Source of the DNA: an uncultured Candidatus Saccharibacteria bacterium
Lineage (GTDB): Bacteria > Patescibacteriota > Minisyncoccia > Phycocordibacterales > UBA1006
Direction: 5' to 3'
DNA: 64,000 nucleotides
Assembly (NCBI GenBank): GCA_964415895.1
Contig: CAYQCC010000003.1
Location: 3,053 to 67,052, forward strand
Numbering within the stretch: position 1 is the first letter of the stretch; each line of letters opens with the position of its first letter. A model generated the notes under the pieces. The model was not told where the DNA came from. It did not search any database and was given only the letters and a program-made list of their open reading frames with translations. Both the position numbers and the translations under genes were made by a program. Positions 152 to 14,241 of this stretch are shown in pieces.

Positions 152-236
152 GGAGGCGTGGATGAGTGGTTTAAATCAACAGTCTTGAAAACTGTCGACT
201 CGAAAGGGTCCGTGAGTTCGAATCTCACCGCCTCCG
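152..236 (+). tRNA. tRNA-Ser (anticodon TGA), class II with long variable arm
   Basis: Acceptor GGAGGCG/CGCCTCC; anticodon stem ACAGT/ACTGT with loop CTTGAAA (U33, anticodon UGA); long variable arm CGACTCGAAAGGGTCCG; T-arm GTGAG-TTCGAAT-CTCAC; discriminator G. Confidence 0.85.
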
Positions 237-1919
237 CATAGTGATACAAAACTCTTCGTTTTGATGATTTAACCCTTCGTATGTAAGGGTTTTTTCATTG
301 CCGAACCCCTCAAAATTGCTCTGTATCATTTTTATCCCAGAAAAGAATACTTCTATTGATTTTTTACTGTAAAATATGAGTTTTTCTTCATCCCATACTA
401 TGTTCGAACCCAGTGCAGTTAACACTCTTCTTTTTGCTTCATACGAACCGTTTTCAATTGTGTTTATTACTGATGATGCAACATCTGTTATTTCATCTAG
501 TTTTTTTACCCATTCAGTATTTACTGGCTTTGAATTATAAATATCGGAGTATTCAATATCTATCTCTGCCAAGAAATCATCTCGTTCTTCTTTTGTAAGT
601 GAGCCTTCAATAAATAATCTTGTGGCTCGTTTCTTTTTATCATCATACTGCTGTTTTCTTTTTTCAATATCTTCAATTTTTCGTAGACCATCTTTTACTT
701 CCTGTTCAGCTATTTCGTGAATATATTTCTTACCCCAATCAATGAAAGGGCTTGGAGTAGAGAGGTTGTCTTTTGCGTACTGAATAAATTCAGTATTTAC
801 TCTCTCTTCAGTCACAGAATGATATTCAAGTTTTTTCTTTTTCTTTCGGTTATCAAAATAATACTGTTGTATAAAATACTTAGGGTTTTCGAGTGTTGAA
901 ATTCGTTTGTTACATTTTGGACAGTGAGTTTTATCTCTATACGCAAATTTATGTTTGCAGTCGCACCATAGTTGTACTTTGATGTCCTGAGAAAGAGTGT
1001 ATCCTAGTGACGAATTAATAAAACCTGTATAGGTCATTTCGTGTTTTTGGTTTTTAGGCTTGTTTCTACCACCCAATATCTGCTCAATCTTGTTAAAATT
1101 GGTTTCGGTAATCATTCTTGGTAGGTTACTATCGAGCGTATGTCTCTCACCTTGAACATAAAAGAAACCTGCGATAACTGGATTATGGAGAAGTTTTCCA
1201 ATATATTCTCGAGTGACAAAATTTCCTCCTAAATTTTTATGTTTCGCTGTTGTAAGTTTTAATTCTTCAACGGCGTATTTATGAATTTTTGTAATGGAAT
1301 ATCTCCCTGAAAGAAATTCCTCTAAAAGTTTTTGGACTTTCCAAAAACGTTCATCATCCACATACCACCAACGTGTTCCTTTTTCTCCCTGTTTTGAATT
1401 TAGGTAACCAATAGTTGCAAGTCCTGAAGGTAGCCCCATTGTACGAGCCTTGTCTCGCTGTCCTCGTTTTACATCTCTACTGAGTGCTAGGGAATACTCT
1501 TTTGATGCACCAAATTTCTGTGCTATGACTGATACGTCGGAACTGTCATCCCAGACTTCAATGTTGTCATCACAAACAGTAATAATCATCAACTTGCCTT
1601 CACTCAAAAGGTCAATGAGAATACCTCCTTCGGTCATATTGCGAGCGATACGGTTCAAGTGCCACGCTAAAATACAGTTTATTTTTCCTGAAAAAATATC
1701 ACTCAACATTTGAGTAAACAGTGGTCGCTTGTGTGCATTTTTTGCAGAGCGAGCTTCTTGGTATTTTGATATTGCTGGAGTGAGAGTTTTATGTTTCTCT
1801 CTCACTTTGTTTATTGCGTCTTCTTGTCCCTCAAGTGATAGTACCTGTCTCTCTCCGTCTCGAGAAGATTTTCTCAAGTATTCAGCAATCTTTAAGTTTT
1901 TATTTTCTAGTTTTTCCAT
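225..1919 (-). CDS. Large serine recombinase (resolvase/integrase family, serine catalytic N-domain plus C-terminal recombinase/zinc-ribbon domain)
   Basis: N-terminal 'AEYLRKSSRDGERQVLSLEGQ' catalytic-serine motif; C-terminal Cys cluster 'CDCKHK...HCPKCNK'; 564 aa; stop lies ~12 nt inside the 3' end of tRNA-Ser. Confidence 0.8.
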   Translation of the reverse strand: MEKLENKNLKIAEYLRKSSRDGERQVLSLEGQEDAINKVREKHKTLTPAISKYQEARSAKNAHKRPLFTQMLSDIFSGKINCILAWHLNRIARNMTEGGILIDLLSEGKLMIITVCDDNIEVWDDSSDVSVIAQKFGASKEYSLALSRDVKRGQRDKARTMGLPSGLATIGYLNSKQGEKGTRWWYVDDERFWKVQKLLEEFLSGRYSITKIHKYAVEELKLTTAKHKNLGGNFVTREYIGKLLHNPVIAGFFYVQGERHTLDSNLPRMITETNFNKIEQILGGRNKPKNQKHEMTYTGFINSSLGYTLSQDIKVQLWCDCKHKFAYRDKTHCPKCNKRISTLENPKYFIQQYYFDNRKKKKKLEYHSVTEERVNTEFIQYAKDNLSTPSPFIDWGKKYIHEIAEQEVKDGLRKIEDIEKRKQQYDDKKKRATRLFIEGSLTKEERDDFLAEIDIEYSDIYNSKPVNTEWVKKLDEITDVASSVINTIENGSYEAKRRVLTALGSNIVWDEEKLIFYSKKSIEVFFSGIKMIQSNFEGFGNEKTLTYEGLNHQNEEFCITMRRR

Positions 1920-4573: not shown

Positions 4574-4597
4574 TGTCTAATCCTGTGGAGTTTTTGG
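4574..4597. repeat. Left boundary repeat 'tgtctaatcctgtggagtttttgg' (related to 12501..12524). Further 'GTCTAATCTT' copies at 4666..4678 and 4699..4710, and a tandem 'CCCTTGGGTT' x3 at 4632..4667
   Basis: Direct sequence comparison: 13-mer gtctaatcttacg identical at 4666..4678 and 12502..12514; flanking ggagtttttg shared. Confidence 0.6.
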
Positions 4598-4740
4598 TAC
4601 TATATTTATATTATCTATTCTTATCTCTTCTACCCTTGGGTTCCCCTTGGATTTCCCTTGGGTCTAGTATCTCTGGTCTAATCTTACGCAAAGTATCTGT
4701 ATTTTCAGGTCTAATCTTGCATAGATTTTATATAGACTTT

Positions 4741-6018
4741 CTAGTCTAAGACTGTTTTAAGAGTTTCTACTACCTGTAAATTTTCTCTTAGTGCCTTCTT
4801 TACTTCAGCCTCTAATACGTCTTTCCCTTTGTGGATAACCTTATTTCTAACATCTTTATACGAAGAACACCAGTTAGTCCACAACGACTGGTTTTTATTT
4901 TCTAAGGTAAATCCAGTAACTTCTCTTAAAACTTCTTTTAATCTTGTTTTTGTTTTCCAGTTATCGTCTTTAGATATAAAATCTATAGCCTCTTGCTCAG
5001 TTAAACCTTTATTCTTTTGCAGTTTATCAACAAGAAAGTTTTCAATAAAAATCTCAAGACCTTGATAGGATTGAACAACTGCTAATGCGTAGTTTTTATG
5101 ATTAAAGGAGTTTTCAGCATCCAGCAAAAGTAAGTTATACAGGTCTGGCTTTTGACCCTCTTCAAGCATTTTTTCTATTGCCTCAATTTCAACTTTTGAG
5201 CGATTTATAGTTGCCGTTTCTACATTCATTGGAAGAAGATATAAGCCTTGATTTAGTTCAGTGAAATAAATCATATTTATACTTAGCGTACCCAATCTTG
5301 TTATGTATTCTTGCTTAGTGGTAAATCGATAACTATCAATAAGTTTATTTACCGCATCAAGGGCTTTTTCATTGACCGTGTCTATAACTTTTTCTGATAG
5401 CTCTTTATTCTCGAGGTCTTCTTTTTTGACTTCTAAGTTGAACTGAATATATAAGCGAGTAAATCTGAAAATACCGTTTGTGTCCTTAATTTTTTGAAGG
5501 TTGATGCCTGTGTAATTTTGTTCCCAGCCATCACTAGGGTCAATTGGCATTTTAGGAGTAAGGAATTCACTGTCTTTTAAGTATGTAATTCTATCATCTG
5601 CGTAGAAATCAACTTCATCGGACGGTTTTCCGTCTGAAATAGCTTTTTTTGTCCAAATCTTTTGAGGTGTTAAAAGAGCAGCATCATCAGGGGTGTGTAA
5701 TAAGACTTCAAGGTCATAATTGTTTGGTATATGTAGACAGTAAGGTAGATGAGCTTCAACAAATACATTTCCGTAATCGAAATCTTTCATTGCATTTCTG
5801 CCATTAAAACTAAAAAAAGATTGTGCTACAAAAATACCACTTCCTCCTGTTGGGGATGTTTTTGTGATTTCAGTAAGCAATACAGATTTTGCATCATCTT
5901 CATTTAATTGTTTAAAGCTTTCATCTAATAAAGCATTAAAATTAATGAACTCGCCAGTTAAGCCTGATTTTGCTTGCATATTAATATGGACCACTTTTCG
6001 TTTGTATGGGTCTGACAT
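4741..6018 (-). CDS. Hypothetical 425-aa protein with C-terminal Rx4H (HEPN-like) motif 'VRNKVIHKG'; candidate abortive-infection/defence protein divergent from hsdM
   Basis: ORF track; R-x4-H motif ~40 aa from the C-terminus; position directly upstream of a Type I R-M operon. Confidence 0.45.
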   Translation of the reverse strand: MSDPYKRKVVHINMQAKSGLTGEFINFNALLDESFKQLNEDDAKSVLLTEITKTSPTGGSGIFVAQSFFSFNGRNAMKDFDYGNVFVEAHLPYCLHIPNNYDLEVLLHTPDDAALLTPQKIWTKKAISDGKPSDEVDFYADDRITYLKDSEFLTPKMPIDPSDGWEQNYTGINLQKIKDTNGIFRFTRLYIQFNLEVKKEDLENKELSEKVIDTVNEKALDAVNKLIDSYRFTTKQEYITRLGTLSINMIYFTELNQGLYLLPMNVETATINRSKVEIEAIEKMLEEGQKPDLYNLLLLDAENSFNHKNYALAVVQSYQGLEIFIENFLVDKLQKNKGLTEQEAIDFISKDDNWKTKTRLKEVLREVTGFTLENKNQSLWTNWCSSYKDVRNKVIHKGKDVLEAEVKKALRENLQVVETLKTVLD

Positions 6019-6136
6019 AATTCATTCATTATATCATTTTTAGGCTAATTTGTAGTGCTATGCAAAATTATTTAGCAAGCTATAAAACCATTATTTTCTA
6101 GTAAAATGATGGTTTTTATGGTAAAATAATACTATT

Positions 6137-7594
6137 ATGTTCGAACAAACTTTTAAAAATATCGATGATATTTTACATAAAGATGCAGGCTGTGGAAGTG
6201 AGCTTGATTATGTAGAGCAAACCTCTTGGGTGTTGTTTTTGAAGTATCTTGATGATTTAGAAGAGGACCGAAAAACCGCATCAGAACTTGATGGAAAAAA
6301 GTATCTTCCTCTCATTAAACCTGAATACAAGTGGAGTGTTTGGGCAACACCAAAACGTAGCGACGGCAAGGTGGACCATAACGCAATGACAGGCGATGAT
6401 TTGTTGGATTTTGTAAACGTTAAACTCTTCCCTTATCTTAAGGGATTTAAAAAATCTGCTGAAAATGCTGATACCTTGGAATATAAAATCGGAGAAATCT
6501 TTAGTGAAATCAAAAACAGAATACAATCAGGATATAATCTACGTGAAGTAATCAATCTGATTGATACGCTACGTTTTCGTTCTGATAGCGAAAAGCACGA
6601 GATGAGCCACCTCTATGAGGCTAAAATTCAAAATATGGGTAACGCAGGGCGTAATGGTGGTGAATACTATACACCTCGTCCACTCATTACTACTATCGTG
6701 CGTGTTGTTGGTCCAAAAATTGGTGACAAGATTTATGACGGAGCAGTAGGAAGTGCAGGCTTTTTGTGTGAAGCATTTGAGTATCTAAAAAATAGCAAAA
6801 GCCTGACTACAAAAGATACCGAGATTTTACAAAAGCAAACATTCTATGGGAAAGAGAAAAAGTCTCTCGCATATATCATTGGTATTATGAATATGATTTT
6901 GCACGGTATTGAAGCGCCAAACATTATCCATACCAATACACTTGCAGAAAATCTTGCAGATATTCAAGAAAAGGACCGTTACGATGTGGTTCTTGCAAAC
7001 CCTCCTTTTGGTGGAAAAGAACGCGCAGAGGTCCAACAAAACTTTCCCATAAAAACAAGCGAGACAGCATCGCTTTTCTTGCAACATTTTATCAAGATTT
7101 TACGTGCTGGTGGACGTGCGGGTATTGTCATTAAAAATACATTTCTTAGTAACACTGACAATGCCAGCATTGCGCTTCGTAAGCAACTCCTCGAAAACTG
7201 TAACCTTCACACGGTACTTGATTTGCCAGGTGGGACCTTTACGGGTGCTGGTGTTAAAACAGTTGTGTTATTTTTCCAAAAAGGAACCCCTACACGCAAG
7301 GTGTGGTTTTATCAATTAAATCTCGACCGTAATTTAGGAAAAACTAATCCATTAAGTGAAAAGGATTTGGCTGAATTTGTAACACTACAAAAAACCTTTG
7401 CTGACAGTGATAATTCGTGGAATGTTGATGTTTCTACTATCGACCAAAATACTTTTGATTTGAGTGTAAAAAACCCTCATAAAAAGGAAGAGAAAGGATT
7501 TCGTGAACCAAAAGAGATTTTGAAAGAAATTGAAATACTTGATAAGCAAAGTAAAGATATAGTCGGGGGTATTCTGAAGTTAATCAATCCTTAA
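6137..7594 (+). CDS. hsdM: Type I restriction-modification system, DNA methyltransferase subunit M (N6-adenine)
   Basis: NPPF(G) motif IV 'VLANPPFGG'; SAM-binding 'DGAVGSAGFL'; N-terminal HsdM_N-like region; 485 aa. Confidence 0.9.
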   Translation: MFEQTFKNIDDILHKDAGCGSELDYVEQTSWVLFLKYLDDLEEDRKTASELDGKKYLPLIKPEYKWSVWATPKRSDGKVDHNAMTGDDLLDFVNVKLFPYLKGFKKSAENADTLEYKIGEIFSEIKNRIQSGYNLREVINLIDTLRFRSDSEKHEMSHLYEAKIQNMGNAGRNGGEYYTPRPLITTIVRVVGPKIGDKIYDGAVGSAGFLCEAFEYLKNSKSLTTKDTEILQKQTFYGKEKKSLAYIIGIMNMILHGIEAPNIIHTNTLAENLADIQEKDRYDVVLANPPFGGKERAEVQQNFPIKTSETASLFLQHFIKILRAGGRAGIVIKNTFLSNTDNASIALRKQLLENCNLHTVLDLPGGTFTGAGVKTVVLFFQKGTPTRKVWFYQLNLDRNLGKTNPLSEKDLAEFVTLQKTFADSDNSWNVDVSTIDQNTFDLSVKNPHKKEEKGFREPKEILKEIEILDKQSKDIVGGILKLINP

Positions 7595-7599
7595 GATAT

Positions 7600-8832
7600 A
7601 TGCTTACAAATACCACAACAAATACATTTAACTTATCGCAAGATAACATTGAAGATATTGCAATTAATACTTCAAATGACGGAGAAACCTGCTATATTTC
7701 GAGAGCAGACAACAGAACCATATTTTATGGTGATTTTATTATTTACGATGGACCAAAAGTAAAAAAGTGTTGTAGTGTTACCTTTCAAAAAAGTAGCAAG
7801 ACGACAAAGTTTATACCTAGATTGGTTTTTTATAAAATCAACCAAGAAGGTAATATCGTAGACACGAATAGTCAGAAAGTAAACATTGAATTTAATCAAT
7901 CAGAAACAGGGCTATTTGAGTTTTGGAAGCTAATCTCATTCCTTAAGGGGTATAAAGACTTGATTGATGTCGGTGACTTTGATGAAAAGTATAAAGTTAT
8001 TGATAATTCTTTGTACATTGCAGAATTTAAAAATAAACAAGAATTTGATAAGGTACAAGAATTAAAAAAGCTAGATATTGATGAGGATACTCTTAAATCA
8101 TATTTAGCAGATAAACGAAAAGATGATTTAGTTTTATTTGCACAACTTTTAGCCGATAATAAGGCTAGAGAAGATTATCGAACTCAATACAATGTTACAA
8201 AGCAAGGAGATGAGGCAATATGGCATCATTTCTTAAAAAATAGAACTTGGATATTGGGCTTAAATACAGAACTTAAGTTTATTCAGGACTTTGCCGATGA
8301 GGTCCACGTTGGTAATCCTGATACAACAAACAAAGGAAATCCAACCACTGATTTAATGGGTATTTCAGACTATACCACCCTTGTTGAGCTAAAAACCTCT
8401 GAAACTAAGTTCTTTACAGAAACTAAAACATCAAATTCTCGAGCTGGTACTTGGTCTTTTTCCGCAGAGTTTATTGAGGGTATAAGTCAATGCTTATCTC
8501 AAAAAAATAGTTGGGATAAAAATCAGGGTTCTAAGCAATTAGTTGTTGATGGAAGCGTTAAAGACCAAAACGTTTATAGAACTACTGACCCAAACACTGT
8601 ATTTATTATCGGAAACAAAGAAAAAGAATTACCCAAAAACCAAACAACTCCAGATATTCTCGTAAAAAGAGATACACTTGAAAGATTTCGTCGAAATAGT
8701 CGAAATGTTGTTATCATTTCATATGATGAGCTTTACCAAAAGGCTTATTATATAGTTCACCATACAACTGCTCCAGATTTGGTGTACGATAATGAAAAAT
8801 TATCAGAAGACACTAATAGTATCCCATTTTAA
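7600..8832 (+). CDS. Uncharacterised 410-aa protein embedded between hsdM and hsdS; C-terminal PD-(D/E)xK-like motif (D...ELK); candidate R-M-embedded defence nuclease (DUF4263/Shedu-like?)
   Basis: 5-nt and 3-nt gaps to hsdM and hsdS indicate co-transcription; motif 'GISDYTTLVELKTSE'; no M/S/R-subunit motifs. Confidence 0.5.
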   Translation: MLTNTTTNTFNLSQDNIEDIAINTSNDGETCYISRADNRTIFYGDFIIYDGPKVKKCCSVTFQKSSKTTKFIPRLVFYKINQEGNIVDTNSQKVNIEFNQSETGLFEFWKLISFLKGYKDLIDVGDFDEKYKVIDNSLYIAEFKNKQEFDKVQELKKLDIDEDTLKSYLADKRKDDLVLFAQLLADNKAREDYRTQYNVTKQGDEAIWHHFLKNRTWILGLNTELKFIQDFADEVHVGNPDTTNKGNPTTDLMGISDYTTLVELKTSETKFFTETKTSNSRAGTWSFSAEFIEGISQCLSQKNSWDKNQGSKQLVVDGSVKDQNVYRTTDPNTVFIIGNKEKELPKNQTTPDILVKRDTLERFRRNSRNVVIISYDELYQKAYYIVHHTTAPDLVYDNEKLSEDTNSIPF

Positions 8833-8835
8833 TTT

Positions 8836-10047
8836 ATGAAAACTAACTGGGAAATAAAAAAGCTAGATGAATTATACAGGGTTGGCTCGAGTAAACGAGT
8901 GCTAAAGTCTCAATGGAAAACCAAAGGGGTGCCTTTTTATAGAGGTAGAGAGATAACACGTCTTTCCAATGATGGTTTTGTTGAAAATGAGTTGTATATT
9001 TCTGAAGAGCACTATACTGAACTTTTAGAAAAAACAGGTGTTCCAGTTGCTGGGGATATTGTTATTACTGCAATTGGGACAATCGGAAATACGTATATAG
9101 TTCGTGATACAGATAAGTTTTATTTTAAAGATGCGAGCGTTTTGTGGCTTAAAAAAATCTCCGATGTAAGTAGTGAGTTTTTGAGATATTTTTTGAAATC
9201 ATCATTATTTTTCAATCAATTAAGCAAAGGAAATGGTGCAACCGTTGACACCCTAACAATAGAAAAGTTGCAAGGAATTAAACTACCCTTGCCCTCTTTA
9301 ATTGAACAAAAACGCATTGTTTCCATTCTAGATAAAGCTTTTAGTGAAATTGAAAAAGCAAAAACAAATGCTGAGCAAAACCTCAAAAATGCGAAAGAGC
9401 TTTTTGAAAGTTATTTACAAGGGGTGTTTGAGAATAAAGGTGAAGATTGGGAAGAGAAAACATTAGGAGAGGTTTTAGTAAAAACAGAAACTGTTGACCC
9501 AACCAAAAAACCAAATAAAGAGTTTATTTATCTTGATGTTTCAAGTGTAAATAAGGAAACCAAAGAAATTGAAAATGCTACCGTTTTGCTTGGCAAAGAT
9601 GCACCAAGCCGAGCTAGAAAGTTGGTTAGAACTAACGATGTTATTTTTGCTACTGTTAGACCAACTCATAGTAGAGTTGCTCTAATTACTGATGAGTATG
9701 ATGAACAAGTTTGTAGCACAGGTTATTTTGTTTTAAGAGCAAAGGATTTTCTTAATAATAATTTTGTGTTCTATTTTCTTCTTACATACGGTTTCAATAA
9801 ACAGATGGAAAAACTTCAAAAAGGAGCAAGTTATCCTGCTGTAACTGATGCAGAAGTCAAAAGCATTGTAATACCTTTTCCAAAATCAAAAGAAGAACAA
9901 CAAGCAACCATTCAAAAATTAGATACCCTGCGAGCCGAAACCAAAAAACTTGAAGAAATATACAGAAATAAAATTACAGACTGCGAAGAACTCAAAAAGT
10001 CGATTTTACACAAAGCCTTTACTGGCGAATTATCAACCCCTAACTAA
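8836..10047 (+). CDS. hsdS: Type I restriction-modification system, specificity subunit S (two target-recognition domains)
   Basis: 403 aa; duplicated TRD architecture with conserved central and C-terminal coiled-coil spacers (LPLPSL...QKRIVSILD...; LDTLRAET). Confidence 0.8.
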   Translation: MKTNWEIKKLDELYRVGSSKRVLKSQWKTKGVPFYRGREITRLSNDGFVENELYISEEHYTELLEKTGVPVAGDIVITAIGTIGNTYIVRDTDKFYFKDASVLWLKKISDVSSEFLRYFLKSSLFFNQLSKGNGATVDTLTIEKLQGIKLPLPSLIEQKRIVSILDKAFSEIEKAKTNAEQNLKNAKELFESYLQGVFENKGEDWEEKTLGEVLVKTETVDPTKKPNKEFIYLDVSSVNKETKEIENATVLLGKDAPSRARKLVRTNDVIFATVRPTHSRVALITDEYDEQVCSTGYFVLRAKDFLNNNFVFYFLLTYGFNKQMEKLQKGASYPAVTDAEVKSIVIPFPKSKEEQQATIQKLDTLRAETKKLEEIYRNKITDCEELKKSILHKAFTGELSTPN

Positions 10048-10056
10048 TCAATTCAT

Positions 10057-12414
10057 ATGAACGAAGCAGAAACAAGAGCAGAAATGATTGACCCAAAACT
10101 AACTGCCCTCGGCTGGGGTGTTGTTGATGGTTCAAAGGTACTCCGTGAATACAACATTACCGCAGGAAAAATAAAGGTTGGAGAAAAGAGGGGTAAGCCA
10201 ATGATTGCTGACTATGTATTGGTCTACAAGGGCGTAAAATTGGCTGTTATTGAGGCAAAATCAGTAAAATTAGATGTGAGTGAAGGTGTGGCACAAGCAA
10301 AGCAATATGCGCTCAAACTAGGTATTCGTACTACCTATGCAACTAATGGTAAAGAAATCTACGCAATTGATACGATGACAGCTGATGAGGGTTCTGTGGA
10401 TACTTTTCTGTCACCAGACGAGCTATGGAATAAAACATTCGAGGTACAAAATGAATGGCGAGAAAAGTTCGCATCGGTCCCATTCGAGGATAAAAGTGGT
10501 TCGTGGTCTCCACGATATTATCAAGAGCTAGCTGTTAAAAACACCCTCGAAGCAGTTGCGAATGGTAAAAACAGAATACTCCTCACACTGGCAACAGGTA
10601 CAGGTAAAACTGCTATTTCATTTCAAATTGCGTGGAAACTATTCCAAACTCGCTGGAATTTGTCAGATAGTGGTACTCGTCGTCCGCGTATTCTATTCCT
10701 TGCGGATAGAAACATATTAGCGGACCAAGCTTTTAATGCCTTCTCTGCATTTCCTGAAGACGCACTGGTACGCATTAATCCCAAGGAAATACGCAAAGGA
10801 GGTAAAGTTCCCACAAATGGAAGTATTTTCTTTACCATATTCCAAACGTTTATGAGTGGAACAGATAGTGAAGGAAACCCTGCTCCGTATTTTGGAGAAT
10901 ATCCGCCAGATTATTTTGATTTTATTATTATCGATGAGTGTCACCGCGGAGGTGCAAATGATGAGAGTAATTGGCGAGGTATTTTAGAGTACTTTTCACC
11001 AGCGGTACAGCTCGGTCTGACAGCTACACCAAAACGAAAAGATAACGTTGATACCTATAAGTACTTTGGTGAACCAGTATACATCTACTCACTCAAAGAA
11101 GGTATTGATGACGGATTTTTGACACCGTTTAAAGTGAAGCGTATCAAAACAACACTTGATGATTATATCTATACGAGCGATGACCAAATCGTTGAGGGTG
11201 AGATTGAGGCAGGAAAACTATATCAGGAAAAAGACTTTAACCGAACCATTGAAATACGTGAACGTGAAGCAAAACGTGTAAAAATCTTTTTAGATGATGC
11301 AAATCAAAACGAAAAAGCAATCATTTTCTGTGCTAATCAAACCCACGCCGCAGTGGTCCGTGATTTAGTAAATCAATACAGTGAAAGTAAGGACCCACAC
11401 TATTGTGTACGCGTAACTGCCAATGATGGCGAAATTGGCGAGCAATTCTTGCGAGAATTCCAAGATAACGAGAAGTTTATACCAACTATTCTAACTACCT
11501 CTCAAAAGCTCTCAACGGGTGTAGATGCTCGTAATATACGAAATGTAGTATTGATGCGCCCTGTGAACTCTATGATTGAATTCAAGCAGATTGTTGGTCG
11601 TGGTACTCGTTTATTTGATGGAAAGGAATTCTTTACTATCTATGACTTTGTTGATGCGTACCATCACTTTGCAGACCCAGAGTGGGACGGTGAACCTGTT
11701 TCAGATGAAGGTGATGTACTTGATGAAAATACTGGTGAAAAGATTAAGAAAGAAAAAGAGCAAGTCGAACGTGAGCCAAAAGTTGATGAAGAAAATACCG
11801 CTCCTAAAAAAGTAAAAGTGAAGCTTCGAAATGGTAAAGAAATGGAAATACAGCATATGGTTGCAACATCGTTTTGGGGAGCAGATGGTAAGCCTGTTTC
11901 TGCTGAAGAGTTCCTCCAAAACCTTTTTGGGGCACTACCACAATTCTTTACCTCTGAAGATGAATTGCGTGACCTATGGGGTAATCCAGTAACGCGTGCT
12001 ACATTACTTGAGAAACTTGAAGAAGCTGGTTATGGAAAAGAAGAACTTGCTTCACTGCAAAAACTTATTGATGCCGAAAAGAGTGATATTTTTGATGTAT
12101 TGGAATATGTTTTTAATAGTGATATCAAGCCTATAACAAGAGAAAATCGTGTCCAGTCTGCACATAATGACATTATGGGGGCCTTGTCAGAGAAACAACA
12201 AGAGTTTATCGATTTCGTACTCCAGAAATATATCGAGACAGGAGTTGAAGAATTAAGTGAAGAAAAACTATCATTGCTCCTTGTGAACAAATACCAGTCA
12301 CTCACAGATGCACAAAGTGCTCTAGGAGATACGACATCTATTCGCTCACTTTTCTTTAATTTCCAAAAGTATTTGTATCGTAAACCGAAACAAGAAACAT
12401 ACACAAAGGTTTAA
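10057..12414 (+). CDS. hsdR: Type I restriction enzyme R subunit (N-terminal PD-(D/E)xK nuclease plus SF2 helicase)
   Basis: Motif I 'LATGTGKT', motif II 'DECHRG', N-terminal 'VIEAKS' nuclease core; 785 aa; follows hsdS by 9 nt. Confidence 0.85.
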   Translation: MNEAETRAEMIDPKLTALGWGVVDGSKVLREYNITAGKIKVGEKRGKPMIADYVLVYKGVKLAVIEAKSVKLDVSEGVAQAKQYALKLGIRTTYATNGKEIYAIDTMTADEGSVDTFLSPDELWNKTFEVQNEWREKFASVPFEDKSGSWSPRYYQELAVKNTLEAVANGKNRILLTLATGTGKTAISFQIAWKLFQTRWNLSDSGTRRPRILFLADRNILADQAFNAFSAFPEDALVRINPKEIRKGGKVPTNGSIFFTIFQTFMSGTDSEGNPAPYFGEYPPDYFDFIIIDECHRGGANDESNWRGILEYFSPAVQLGLTATPKRKDNVDTYKYFGEPVYIYSLKEGIDDGFLTPFKVKRIKTTLDDYIYTSDDQIVEGEIEAGKLYQEKDFNRTIEIREREAKRVKIFLDDANQNEKAIIFCANQTHAAVVRDLVNQYSESKDPHYCVRVTANDGEIGEQFLREFQDNEKFIPTILTTSQKLSTGVDARNIRNVVLMRPVNSMIEFKQIVGRGTRLFDGKEFFTIYDFVDAYHHFADPEWDGEPVSDEGDVLDENTGEKIKKEKEQVEREPKVDEENTAPKKVKVKLRNGKEMEIQHMVATSFWGADGKPVSAEEFLQNLFGALPQFFTSEDELRDLWGNPVTRATLLEKLEEAGYGKEELASLQKLIDAEKSDIFDVLEYVFNSDIKPITRENRVQSAHNDIMGALSEKQQEFIDFVLQKYIETGVEELSEEKLSLLLVNKYQSLTDAQSALGDTTSIRSLFFNFQKYLYRKPKQETYTKV

Positions 12415-12441
12415 GTGGTAGAAATTATATCTCCAAAAGAT

Positions 12442-12468
12442 AACGTCATAACAAGGCGTTATTTTTTG
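12442..12468 (+). terminator. Rho-independent terminator after hsdR (ataacg-N-cgttat + T6)
   Basis: Hairpin plus T-run immediately after hsdR stop. Confidence 0.5.
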
Positions 12469-12500
12469 TAGATTAAGTTTTCTATAAAGTTTACGTGTCT

Positions 12501-12524
12501 TGTCTAATCTTACGGAGTTTTTGT
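12501..12524. repeat. Right boundary repeat 'tgtctaatcttacggagtttttgt' (direct-orientation partner of 4574..4597)
   Basis: See left repeat; same orientation; brackets the 425-aa gene plus hsdM-X-hsdS-hsdR. Confidence 0.6.
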
Positions 12525-12637
12525 TTAATTATCTTGATTATTTCGGGTGCTTGGTTGCTCATTCATTCATTTTCTTTGGTTATTATTTTTAGAACATCTT
12601 TACAAGTTTTGGAGTAAGAATTTTTTATATAGTCTAT

Positions 12638-12788
12638 GATAGGCTATCGATAGTCTATCGTTTACTATCTTTAGATATATTGCTTATGCTTACGCTTCTT
12701 TCAATATTGCTTTCCGAACATCATCCCACGTTCGGAGTAGGGATATTTGTTTTTGTTATAGTCTAAGATAGTCTATAGATAGACTATC
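12638..12788. promoter_or_regulatory. Cluster of palindromic operator-like boxes GATAG(G/T)CTATC. Two abutting copies at 12638..12659 and an inverted pair 'gatagtctat-ag-atagactatc' at 12767..12788
   Basis: Exact palindromes read in sequence; located in a 730-bp intergenic region between hsdR and the HNH gene. Confidence 0.45.
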
Positions 12789-12832
12789 TTGTTTATATTT
12801 TACGCTTCTTCTAATATTGCTTGCCGAACATC
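12690..12832. repeat. Two 33-bp direct repeats 'ttacgcttctt(t/c)(c/t)aatattgctt(t/g)ccgaacatc' (12690..12722 and 12800..12832), 110 bp apart, flanking the palindromic boxes
   Basis: 30/33 identity by eye alignment. Confidence 0.6.
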
Positions 12833-12912
12833 GTATACCCACTTCCGCCAAGAGAATAAAGTATCGGAGCTGACTCACTTGCCTCAAATGAGTGATAATG
12901 CCCTGACCAGTA

Positions 12913-12936
12913 AAAAGCACGGTTTCGTGCTTTTTA
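12913..12936. terminator. Rho-independent terminator hairpin aaaagcacg-gttt-cgtgctttt
   Basis: Perfect 9-bp stem, 4-nt loop, T-run; explains away listed ORF 12789..12971. Confidence 0.6.
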
Positions 12937-12951
12937 CTTTAAAATTGATAT

Positions 12952-13113
12952 ATGGAAACAAAAGAAAATGAAAAAACTGAGGAAGAGATTATTATCGACA
13001 ACGAATTGGACTATCTTGCGGAAGTTCTAGTAGAAGCATTCTTAGAAGAGAAAGGGTATGAGTCAATTGATTGGTTGTATCAAAAGAAGATTTGGCAAAA
13101 AAGAAAGAAATAG
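12952..13113 (+). CDS. Small acidic ORF (53 aa; METKENEKTEEEIIIDNELDYLAEVLVEAFLEEKGYESIDWLYQKKIWQKRKK) immediately upstream of the HNH gene
   Basis: Hand translation; ends 33 nt before the 13147 start; below ORF-track cutoff. Confidence 0.3.
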   Translation: METKENEKTEEEIIIDNELDYLAEVLVEAFLEEKGYESIDWLYQKKIWQKRKK

Positions 13114-13146
13114 ATTTTTTAGGTCAATTCATGGTAGGCTAAAAAT

Positions 13147-14241
13147 ATGCCTAGATGTATTTATTGTTTGAAAACAAGTCCAGAAGTTACTTTCGACACA
13201 ACGGAACATGTAATCCCTCAGTCTTTTGGTACTTACGAACCATTAACTCCTACTCTCGAGGAGCTAGTTTGTGATTCGTGCAATTCATTGTTTTCAAAAC
13301 TTGAAACCAAATTAAGAGAAGATACCTTTGAGGGTGTTTTTGGGCAAAGACTTAACTTTCAAAATAAAAACAGTATCACCATAAGAAATAAAAATTTCAA
13401 GATTACTTCTTTAAGTGAATTTAAAGATCCAATGTTTACTAGAACATTTTTTCTTTTTAAAATTGAAGATGAAAAGATTGTGCCTGATATCAAACCTCAC
13501 ATAACTATTAAAATGAAAAATGGCGGGTATAGAGTATTTCTTATAGAAGCACTGAAAAGAATAGAGAAAGATACCAGCAGGTTCAATAAGCTTAAAAAAG
13601 ATATATCAAAACTGAGCAAAGAAGACATTTGGATTTTTGTCCCTAGAGATGATGCTTCTTTGAAAGAAGCGGAGTCGATATTAAAAGATTACGGTATTGA
13701 ATATACAGAAAAGAGTAGAGGTATAGCTGGAGAAGAAACTCCGGAAGCAGTCGAAGTCATAGAGGATTACCAAGGTGTTGTAGATAAAGAAATTTGCAGG
13801 GTTTTAGCAAAAATAGTTTTTAACTATTTTACGTATTGTGCTAAAGAACAAGGAATGGCTGATTTGGTCTTCAGTCCAAATTTTGATCCTATTCGAAACT
13901 TTATTTTAAATGGCGCTGGATATAGTGATACTTTTGTACATATGCCCGAGAGGCGAATTCTAGGGCAAGAGGTTGGAACTAATAGGTATGTCTTTGGTCA
14001 TACGGTATGTTTCGGAGAAGATGAGGCAGGGAAAGTTTATTGTCACTTAGTTCTTTTCAGTTTTCGGCCTTACACAATATCTCTGGGAATTCTTCCGCAA
14101 GAAATAAAAAATCAATTATTTGGCTGCGGGCATGTTTTTGATCCTGTAACAAAACGAATTGAAAATATTGCTCAAAATACACAACCCCGCATGCCTGATG
14201 CTCTCGATCTGTCTTTTGGACTATATAAAAGATTTAGATAG
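13147..14241 (+). CDS. HNH (His-Me finger) nuclease-domain protein with ~300-aa uncharacterised C-terminal extension; candidate defence protein
   Basis: N-terminal 'CIYC...EHVIPQSFG...CDSCNS' matches the CxxC...[DE]H...P...CxxCN HNH signature; 364 aa. Confidence 0.55.
   Translation: MPRCIYCLKTSPEVTFDTTEHVIPQSFGTYEPLTPTLEELVCDSCNSLFSKLETKLREDTFEGVFGQRLNFQNKNSITIRNKNFKITSLSEFKDPMFTRTFFLFKIEDEKIVPDIKPHITIKMKNGGYRVFLIEALKRIEKDTSRFNKLKKDISKLSKEDIWIFVPRDDASLKEAESILKDYGIEYTEKSRGIAGEETPEAVEVIEDYQGVVDKEICRVLAKIVFNYFTYCAKEQGMADLVFSPNFDPIRNFILNGAGYSDTFVHMPERRILGQEVGTNRYVFGHTVCFGEDEAGKVYCHLVLFSFRPYTISLGILPQEIKNQLFGCGHVFDPVTKRIENIAQNTQPRMPDALDLSFGLYKRFR

Follow-up and report, generated by a model that had tools for sequence, protein, structure and literature searches.

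What is encoded by the gene that stands divergently beside the type I restriction-modification (R-M) operon of this locus, and does it belong to that R-M system? The stretch analyzed, to which all coordinates refer, is a 64-kb window of DNA from an uncultured Candidatus Saccharibacteria bacterium. The gene in question is a complete open reading frame (ORF) at 4741..6018 on the minus strand, with an ATG start and 425 amino acids (aa) plus the stop codon. The initial annotation had described a 425-aa protein with a C-terminal Rx4H motif, had read this motif as the signature of a HEPN RNase, and had proposed an abortive infection (Abi) effector linked to the R-M genes. The ORF and its motif are present as described there: the C terminus of the protein reads SYKDVRNKVIHKGKD, and RNKVIH is its only Rx4-6H motif. 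The reading that we favor, with a probability of roughly 0.55, is that the product would be a self-contained, single-polypeptide HEPN RNase, a predicted anti-phage or Abi effector that is carried as cargo near the edge of serine-recombinase integrative elements; it draws on sequence comparison, structural models, and analogy.

The motif alone is weak evidence, because composition-preserving shuffles of the protein contain Rx4H in 15% of cases and Rx4-6H in 40%. The presence of RNKVIH by itself is not beyond chance; it is the conservation of the motif that exceeds chance. A search of 5.8 billion proteins gave 44 clusters of homologs (at 90% identity), nearly all of them full-length (405–454 aa) with a few shorter fragments, at 36–81% identity. 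In the family alignment of 41 homologs (35–81% identity), Arg391 and His396 are invariant and the Asn of the motif is also strictly conserved; among the six histidines of the protein, His396 alone is invariant. Conservation of the motif among homologs, on which the HEPN assignment had been made to depend, is thus observed. Relative to the homolog of 81% identity (L002; here and below, L numbers designate individual loci), the ratio of non-synonymous to synonymous substitution (dN/dS) is ∼0.05, and each of the three parts of the protein (N-terminal, middle, and C-terminal) shows low non-synonymous divergence (pN). This is therefore a real gene, in which the whole protein, and not the motif alone, is under purifying selection.

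The C-terminal region of the protein is matched, below the gathering cut-off, by the Pfam model HEPN_Apea, with aa 317–403 aligning to profile positions 3–103 of 136 (E = 0.0029, 18.5 bits). The same model is matched at E ≤ 0.1 by 27 of the 41 homologs, the best with E = 9.6e-6, and the classical HEPN family PF05168 by six of them; one homolog (P0010) has a precomputed PF18739 annotation. PADLOC adds a weak match to CARF_HEPN (E = 5.6e-4), and two PHROG families of unknown function cover aa ∼280–416 (PHROG 37158, E = 7e-7; the other, E = 1.5e-5). AbiU2 (PF18734), which is likewise a HEPN-based family of the Abi type and had been named as a candidate, does not match the window protein.

An AlphaFold2 model built from the family alignment (predicted local distance difference test, pLDDT, 87.7; predicted TM-score, pTM, 0.73) contains the HEPN-like bundle that had been anticipated, with four helices, at aa 275–422 and with a pLDDT of about 90. 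Helix 377–397, the third core helix, bears the RNxxxH motif at its C-terminal end and is followed by a loop and by the last helix, 403–422. This position agrees with the published description of the HEPN motif site, which places it where helix-3 ends and the loop toward helix-4 begins, with a polar residue typically following the Arg (PMC3710099). In a Foldseek comparison with the PDB, the high-probability neighbors are all HEPN proteins (2q00, 2hsb, 1o3u, 1wol, Csm6 8jbb, and Csx1 8y7f); the top match, 2q00, has a probability of 1.0 and a target-normalized TM-score of 0.60–0.66, with the whole target aligned. At the sequence level, neither the protein nor the family profile had a match in the PDB, and a search of the BFVD viral structures gave no credible one. 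Supported by the HEPN_Apea and CARF_HEPN matches, the Foldseek neighbors, and the invariant motif, the HEPN reading of the C terminus stands, and the gene product is very probably a catalytic HEPN RNase, as predicted from conservation and the model.

The best-matching curated family, HEPN_Apea (PF18739), is the HEPN family of ApeA/BMEI1217 and has the same motif type, RNxxxH; its name suggests membership of the ApeA family. ApeA (Ec1ApeA/Ec2ApeA) is reportedly an experimentally validated anti-phage system, credited to Gao et al. in 2020. We recovered the E. coli protein (601 aa; L026 3001–4806, NZ_CP042899.1) from a RefSeq genome by means of a partial insert sequence given in a preprint supplement. 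The PADLOC model PDLC02157 scores 1389 bits on Ec1ApeA and yields no match to the window protein at E ≤ 1, the family profile aligns to Ec1ApeA with an hhalign probability of 0.1%, and BLASTP finds nothing (E ≥ 1.2). Judged by sequence, the window protein is not an ApeA family member. Moreover, Ec1ApeA has no match at E ≤ 0.01 to PF18739, the very family named after ApeA, and an “Apea-like HEPN” annotation and the ApeA defense system should not be equated.

The Ec1ApeA motif, RNKITH, is nearly identical to RNKVIH (RNK[IV][TI]H), and both proteins are encoded by a single gene with no conserved partner. ApeA is described as predominantly α-helical and about 600 aa long, built of an N-terminal domain, a middle domain, and a HEPN_ApeA domain of 250 aa that is split; in it, a HEPN dimer is gated by a sensing pocket with the N-terminal domain and then cleaves tRNA or phage RNA (preprints 10.64898/2026.01.26.701840 and 10.64898/2026.03.20.713152). 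The window protein, in contrast, has 425 aa, a β-rich N terminus, and a compact HEPN domain of ∼150 aa. By analogy, it may nevertheless work like ApeA, as a single polypeptide with a near-identical motif and a sensor region packed on the HEPN domain.

The first ∼270 aa of the protein had been passed over with the remark that no other recognizable domain is present. This holds for Pfam, NCBIfam, PADLOC, and PDB sequence matches, of which there are none, but not for the region itself, which is conserved, structured, and family-defining. It contains 25 invariant residues. Nineteen of these are in the N-terminal region (P92, Y93, C94, P98, K120, W122, T123, S133, D137, P155, P158, G164, W165, T170, G171, N173, G182, F184, and R185), whose β-strand part spans aa 9–193 in the AlphaFold2 model; the other six (N224, Y230, R231, Y251, N272, and R273) are in the middle region and are kept in remote relatives. 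The conserved motifs are LPYC (92–94), KxWT (120–123), GxFRYT (from 182), NxLIDxYR (224–231), and NR (272–273). Residues ∼78–274 have no Pfam or PDB match, the N-terminal region has no Pfam, PDB, or BFVD neighbor, and of the 26 Pfam families matched by the 41 family members at E ≤ 0.1, none of the 25 listed is an N-terminal model.

When the N-terminal 204 aa are modeled alone, the pLDDT falls to 63.5, from 76–95 within the full-length model, which suggests that this region packs against the rest of the protein. We read it, on the strength of the model, as packing on the HEPN domain and not as a module that stands by itself. A Foldseek search with the isolated N-terminal model returned noise only (probability ≤ 0.03 for long alignments), and no fold was assigned. 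The 2013 survey of HEPN proteins defined an “ApeA-NTD1” of ∼300 aa, mostly β strands with conserved aromatic residues, which is fused to HEPN(Apea) in a family that sometimes occurs in R-M operons (Anantharaman et al., 2013, PMC3710099). The window protein fits this verbal description, with a mostly β region of ∼270 aa and invariant aromatics (Y93, W122, W165, F184, Y230, and Y251). We infer a sensor or regulatory role for this region.

The family is part of a much wider group. When 1.84 billion representative proteins were searched exhaustively with the family profile, 905 clusters (defined at 50% identity) reached E ≤ 1e-3, of which 68 reached E ≤ 1e-30; the region common to this superfamily, which no curated library annotates, begins at aa 78. 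Sixty remote relatives of ∼230–420 aa align to aa 78–425 with an hhalign probability of 100% (E = 2.9e-54). They have the same N-terminal and middle motifs, the Arg and His of the HEPN motif are their sole invariant columns, and the remote members are almost wholly without Pfam annotation. The HEPN family to which the gene belongs is sizeable, unannotated, and marked by its N-terminal region; the family is new, but its kind is well known. One homolog, the metagenomic protein P0064 (632 aa), bears an AbiU2 HEPN domain at its C terminus (aa 439–625; PF18734, E = 6.8e-9). From its domain matches, P0064 is the whole family architecture plus a second HEPN domain, that is, a predicted tandem dual-HEPN architecture; its AbiU2 fusion is guilt by association, not homology.

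The commonest host group of the family appears to be the Candidate Phyla Radiation (CPR)/Patescibacteria, with Paceibacterota, Taylorbacteria, Kaiserbacteria, Curtissbacteria, and Staskawiczbacteria among the named hosts. Others are Gammaproteobacteria, Bdellovibrionales, Actinomycetes, Planctomycetota (Sedimentisphaerales), and Omnitrophota. Such a patchy spread over distant phyla is typical of horizontally moving genes. It also bears on the explanation that the protein works outside any conflict system, either as an RNA-processing enzyme with a housekeeping or regulatory task or as a HEPN protein that binds RNA or a ligand without being catalytic. Several loci do have only metabolic or translation genes around the HEPN gene (fmt-def, enolase, transporters), and some HEPN families are non-catalytic (PMC3710099). 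Yet a sparse, cross-phylum distribution over 44 clusters is unlike that of a housekeeping gene; Arg, Asn, and His of the motif are strictly kept, whereas non-catalytic HEPN proteins lose it; and one homolog is fused to AbiU2 and the gene is found on islands beside integrases. We regard a function of this kind as improbable.

We next compared the genes within 5 kb of the HEPN gene in 20 loci, comprising the window and 19 further non-redundant loci, by all-against-all clustering of their 197 neighbor ORFs. The only recurrent neighbor type besides hsdM/hsdR is a large serine recombinase, present in half of the loci (10/20), the window included. It is directly adjacent in L022, L024, and L025, at 126, 73, and 13 nt, respectively. 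In L024, the recombinase is preceded by a terminase and phage-type methyltransferases, which places the HEPN gene at a prophage end. AbiEi/AbiEii adjoin the HEPN gene in L018, and R-M genes are found at about a third of the loci; neighbors elsewhere include a C5 methylase together with a MutH-like nuclease, R-M enzymes of type IIG, and tyrosine integrases. As a separate observation, L021 (4287–5691) and L024 (9970–11320), whose genomes are unrelated, both have the fmt-def genes of the host (formyltransferase and peptide deformylase) within a few kb of the HEPN gene, and the two fmt genes are homologous, which suggests a shared insertion hotspot of the HEPN-carrying element.

The recurrence of the recombinase, at times 13–126 nt away, together with the frequency of HEPN toxins in toxin-antitoxin modules (PMC3710099), could be taken to mean that the protein is an addiction or stabilization toxin of the serine-recombinase element, which would mainly punish loss of the element or mediate competition between elements instead of sensing phage, and which would be inhibited by its own N-terminal part or by some factor that is not conserved. 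There is, however, no conserved cognate antitoxin gene, of the MNT or any other type: no small partner or antitoxin gene recurs among the neighbor ORFs of the 20 loci, the small ORFs adjacent to the gene in five other loci have no Pfam match and no antitoxin-like domain, and the window has no neighboring nucleotidyltransferase. In this the protein differs from HepT-type proteins, of ∼120 aa and with an adjacent MNT nucleotidyltransferase antitoxin, even though the minimal HEPN/HepT structures (2q00, 2hsb, 1o3u, and 1wol) are the closest solved structures to its C-terminal domain, at only 11–17% identity; it has no such partner and an extra N-terminal region of 270 aa. In addition, the recombinases are only 20–39% identical to each other, with variable spacing and orientation, as is expected of a cargo hotspot more than of a functional pair, and the recombinase is missing from the other half of the loci. 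An addiction function is accordingly unlikely.

The position of the gene in the window raises a different explanation, that of a PrrC-type suicide nuclease coupled to R-M, held latent by the adjacent type I enzyme or triggered by its inactivation and co-regulated with it from a shared divergent promoter region. As annotated, the HEPN gene and hsdM are transcribed divergently, from start codons at 6018 (minus strand) and 6137 (plus strand) that are separated by 118 nt. A sigma-70 scan of this interval found no consensus match, non-canonical promoters being outside the coverage of the tool. The proposed repeat-bounded cassette is also found: two copies of a 23-nt direct repeat, TGTCTAATCYTRYGGAGTTTTTG, bracket exactly the HEPN gene and the hsdM-sduA-hsdS-hsdR operon. 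The copies are identical at 20 of 23 positions and are the only two in the window, where none is expected by chance, and weaker similarity extends over about 50 nt around them. Among all the loci compared, the repeat is present only in the identical contig L001, which makes it uninformative for comparison. Further in favor of coupling, an hsdM of 72% identity lies 4.5 kb from the HEPN gene in L012, another type I system is found in L009/L025, and HEPN families including ApeA/BMEI1217 have been reported inside R-M operons (PMC3710099).

Outside the window, however, the association is not conserved. L012, L009/L025, and the window are the only loci with hsdM within 5 kb (3/20), and distance and orientation vary among the three; in the closest homolog (81% identity), the divergent neighbor is an unrelated AlbA_2 protein and there is no R-M neighbor. 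Nor is the HEPN gene the one embedded in the operon. That gene is sduA, which encodes a Shedu nuclease (PADLOC, 1.7e-54; Pfam SduA_C, 2.5e-21) and is inserted between hsdM (Pfam N6_Mtase, 3.8e-64) and hsdS with gaps of 5 and 3 nt, the slot that PrrC holds in classical prr loci. In L012 the same slot is filled by three unannotated small ORFs of 173, 189, and 175 aa, so that it looks like a variable cargo site. PrrC and RloC resemble the window protein in being HEPN RNases with Rx4-6H motifs beside type I R-M genes, but they have an N-terminal ABC-ATPase domain and are encoded within the R-M operon itself (PMC3710099). For the window protein, Pfam, NCBIfam, and PADLOC yield no ATPase or P-loop match, and its gene lies on the strand opposite to the operon and outside it. 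The specific functional link to R-M that had been proposed is thus not upheld, and a PrrC-type mechanism has little probability; the place of the gene beside the type I R-M/Shedu operon reflects defense-island clustering, not obligatory coupling. The view of the locus is corrected accordingly, with Shedu as the R-M-embedded gene and the HEPN gene as independent island cargo.

We therefore return to the favored reading of a self-contained HEPN effector. It is read as self-contained from the lack of a recurrent small partner in the 20 loci and of an antitoxin-like domain nearby, and its assignment to mobile and defense contexts follows from the recombinase, AbiE, R-M, Shedu, prophage, and integrase neighbors and from the AbiU2 fusion of P0064. 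A predicted role in defense or Abi is plausible. By analogy with PrrC, RNase L, HepT, and ApeA (PMC3710099; 10.64898/2026.01.26.701840; 10.64898/2026.03.20.713152), two copies of the protein would dimerize through their HEPN domains, so that a single composite RNase site, independent of metal, would arise from the two R/H motifs. Packed on the HEPN domain, the N-terminal and middle region would keep the RNase inactive until it senses an infection cue, which may be a ligand, a nucleic acid, or a protein. The activated RNase would then cut RNA of the cell or of the virus, be it tRNA in the anticodon loop, mRNA, or phage RNA, with 2′,3′-cyclic phosphate ends as the outcome, and phage growth would stop.

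Several observations weigh against this reading. The HEPN_Apea score of the window protein (18.5 bits) is below the Pfam gathering cut-off of 24.4, and no curated defense model fits, PADLOC yielding only weak matches, to CARF_HEPN and PDC-M45A. The Foldseek E-values to HEPN structures are weak (0.011–1.3), although the top matches have a probability of 1.0. A tblastn search of 50,697 phage and 72,556 plasmid records found zero homologs. At many loci the neighbors are ordinary housekeeping genes, so that enrichment in defense islands is putative. Finally, dimerization is a prediction by analogy with the systems named above, and so is the role of the N-terminal region as a sensor.

A bolder proposal is that aa ∼78–274 form a new infection-sensing module that would gate the HEPN RNase allosterically, with a trigger unlike that of ApeA, in an unrecognized single-protein immune family spread by large-serine-recombinase elements. 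We put it forward as tentative, and consider it clearly less probable than the reading above. HEPN domains fused to unknown N-terminal domains in defense islands have been catalogued since 2013, and the result will not surprise a specialist; interest would grow were the N-terminal region to turn out to sense infection as a sensor of a new type. Should the prediction be true, the protein would be one more single-protein HEPN immune effector, compact and with a sensor region unlike any solved structure. A limited literature search found no paper on HEPN defense genes in ultra-small CPR bacteria, and the superfamily of 905 clusters could yield a curated model for defense-system finders.

Table 1. 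Coordinates of the HEPN gene regions and of the surrounding features in the window
Feature	Position	Strand	Basis or remark
tRNA-Ser(tga)	152..237	+	Overlaps the 3′ end of the recombinase ORF by 13 nt
Large serine recombinase, 564 aa	225..1919	−	Pfam Resolvase, E = 1.5e-14
23-nt direct repeat, left copy	4574..4596	+	3′ of the HEPN stop codon
HEPN-like helical bundle, aa 275–425	4744..5196	−	Pfam, PADLOC, PHROG, AlphaFold2, Foldseek
RNKVIH (aa 391–396)	4831..4848	−	Rx4H catalytic-type motif, polar N after R; from the translation
Middle region, aa 205–274 (long helix 205–234 and β hairpin 246–266)	5197..5406	−	Alignment, AlphaFold2
N-terminal, mostly β-strand region, aa 1–204	5407..6018	−	Alignment, AlphaFold2 strands
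Divergent intergenic region between HEPN gene and hsdM	6019..6136		118 nt, AT-rich
Type I R-M operon with embedded Shedu	6137..12414	+	hsdM 6137–7594, sduA 7600–8832, hsdS 8836–10047, hsdR 10057–12414
23-nt direct repeat, right copy	12501..12523	+	87 nt past the hsdR stop codon

The tRNA-Ser gene is probably the integration site and the left edge of an island that holds the HEPN gene together with the R-M/Shedu and HNH genes. The window was searched for a second copy of the 3′ end of tRNA-Ser, which would delimit the island, and none was found; this is consistent with serine recombinases, which leave no long duplications. Upstream of the tRNA gene, positions 47–93 form an inverted repeat of 22 nt, perfectly matched and with a loop of 3 nt (GAAATACAAATGTGGGATTTGC / GCAAATCCCACATTTGTATTTC), which may be a terminator or a recombinase site. 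Near the left copy of the 23-nt direct repeat, shorter copies of the type GTCTAATCYT are present at 4676 and 4709.

After hsdR, the intergenic region 12415–13146 contains a 33-nt repeat in three copies (12566, 12690, and 12800; spacing 124 and 110 nt), palindromic TAGTCTAT-rich blocks at about 12625–12670 and 12757–12790, and a 53-aa ORF at 12949–13113; the repeats resemble iterons or operators. The following gene, 13147–14241 on the plus strand, encodes 364 aa, of which the N-terminal part bears an HNH_5 nuclease motif (Pfam, 7.8e-9; PHROG 35254, 1e-10) and the remaining ∼300 aa are unannotated. Lying just beyond the R-M operon, it may be a further defense or mobile-element gene of the island.

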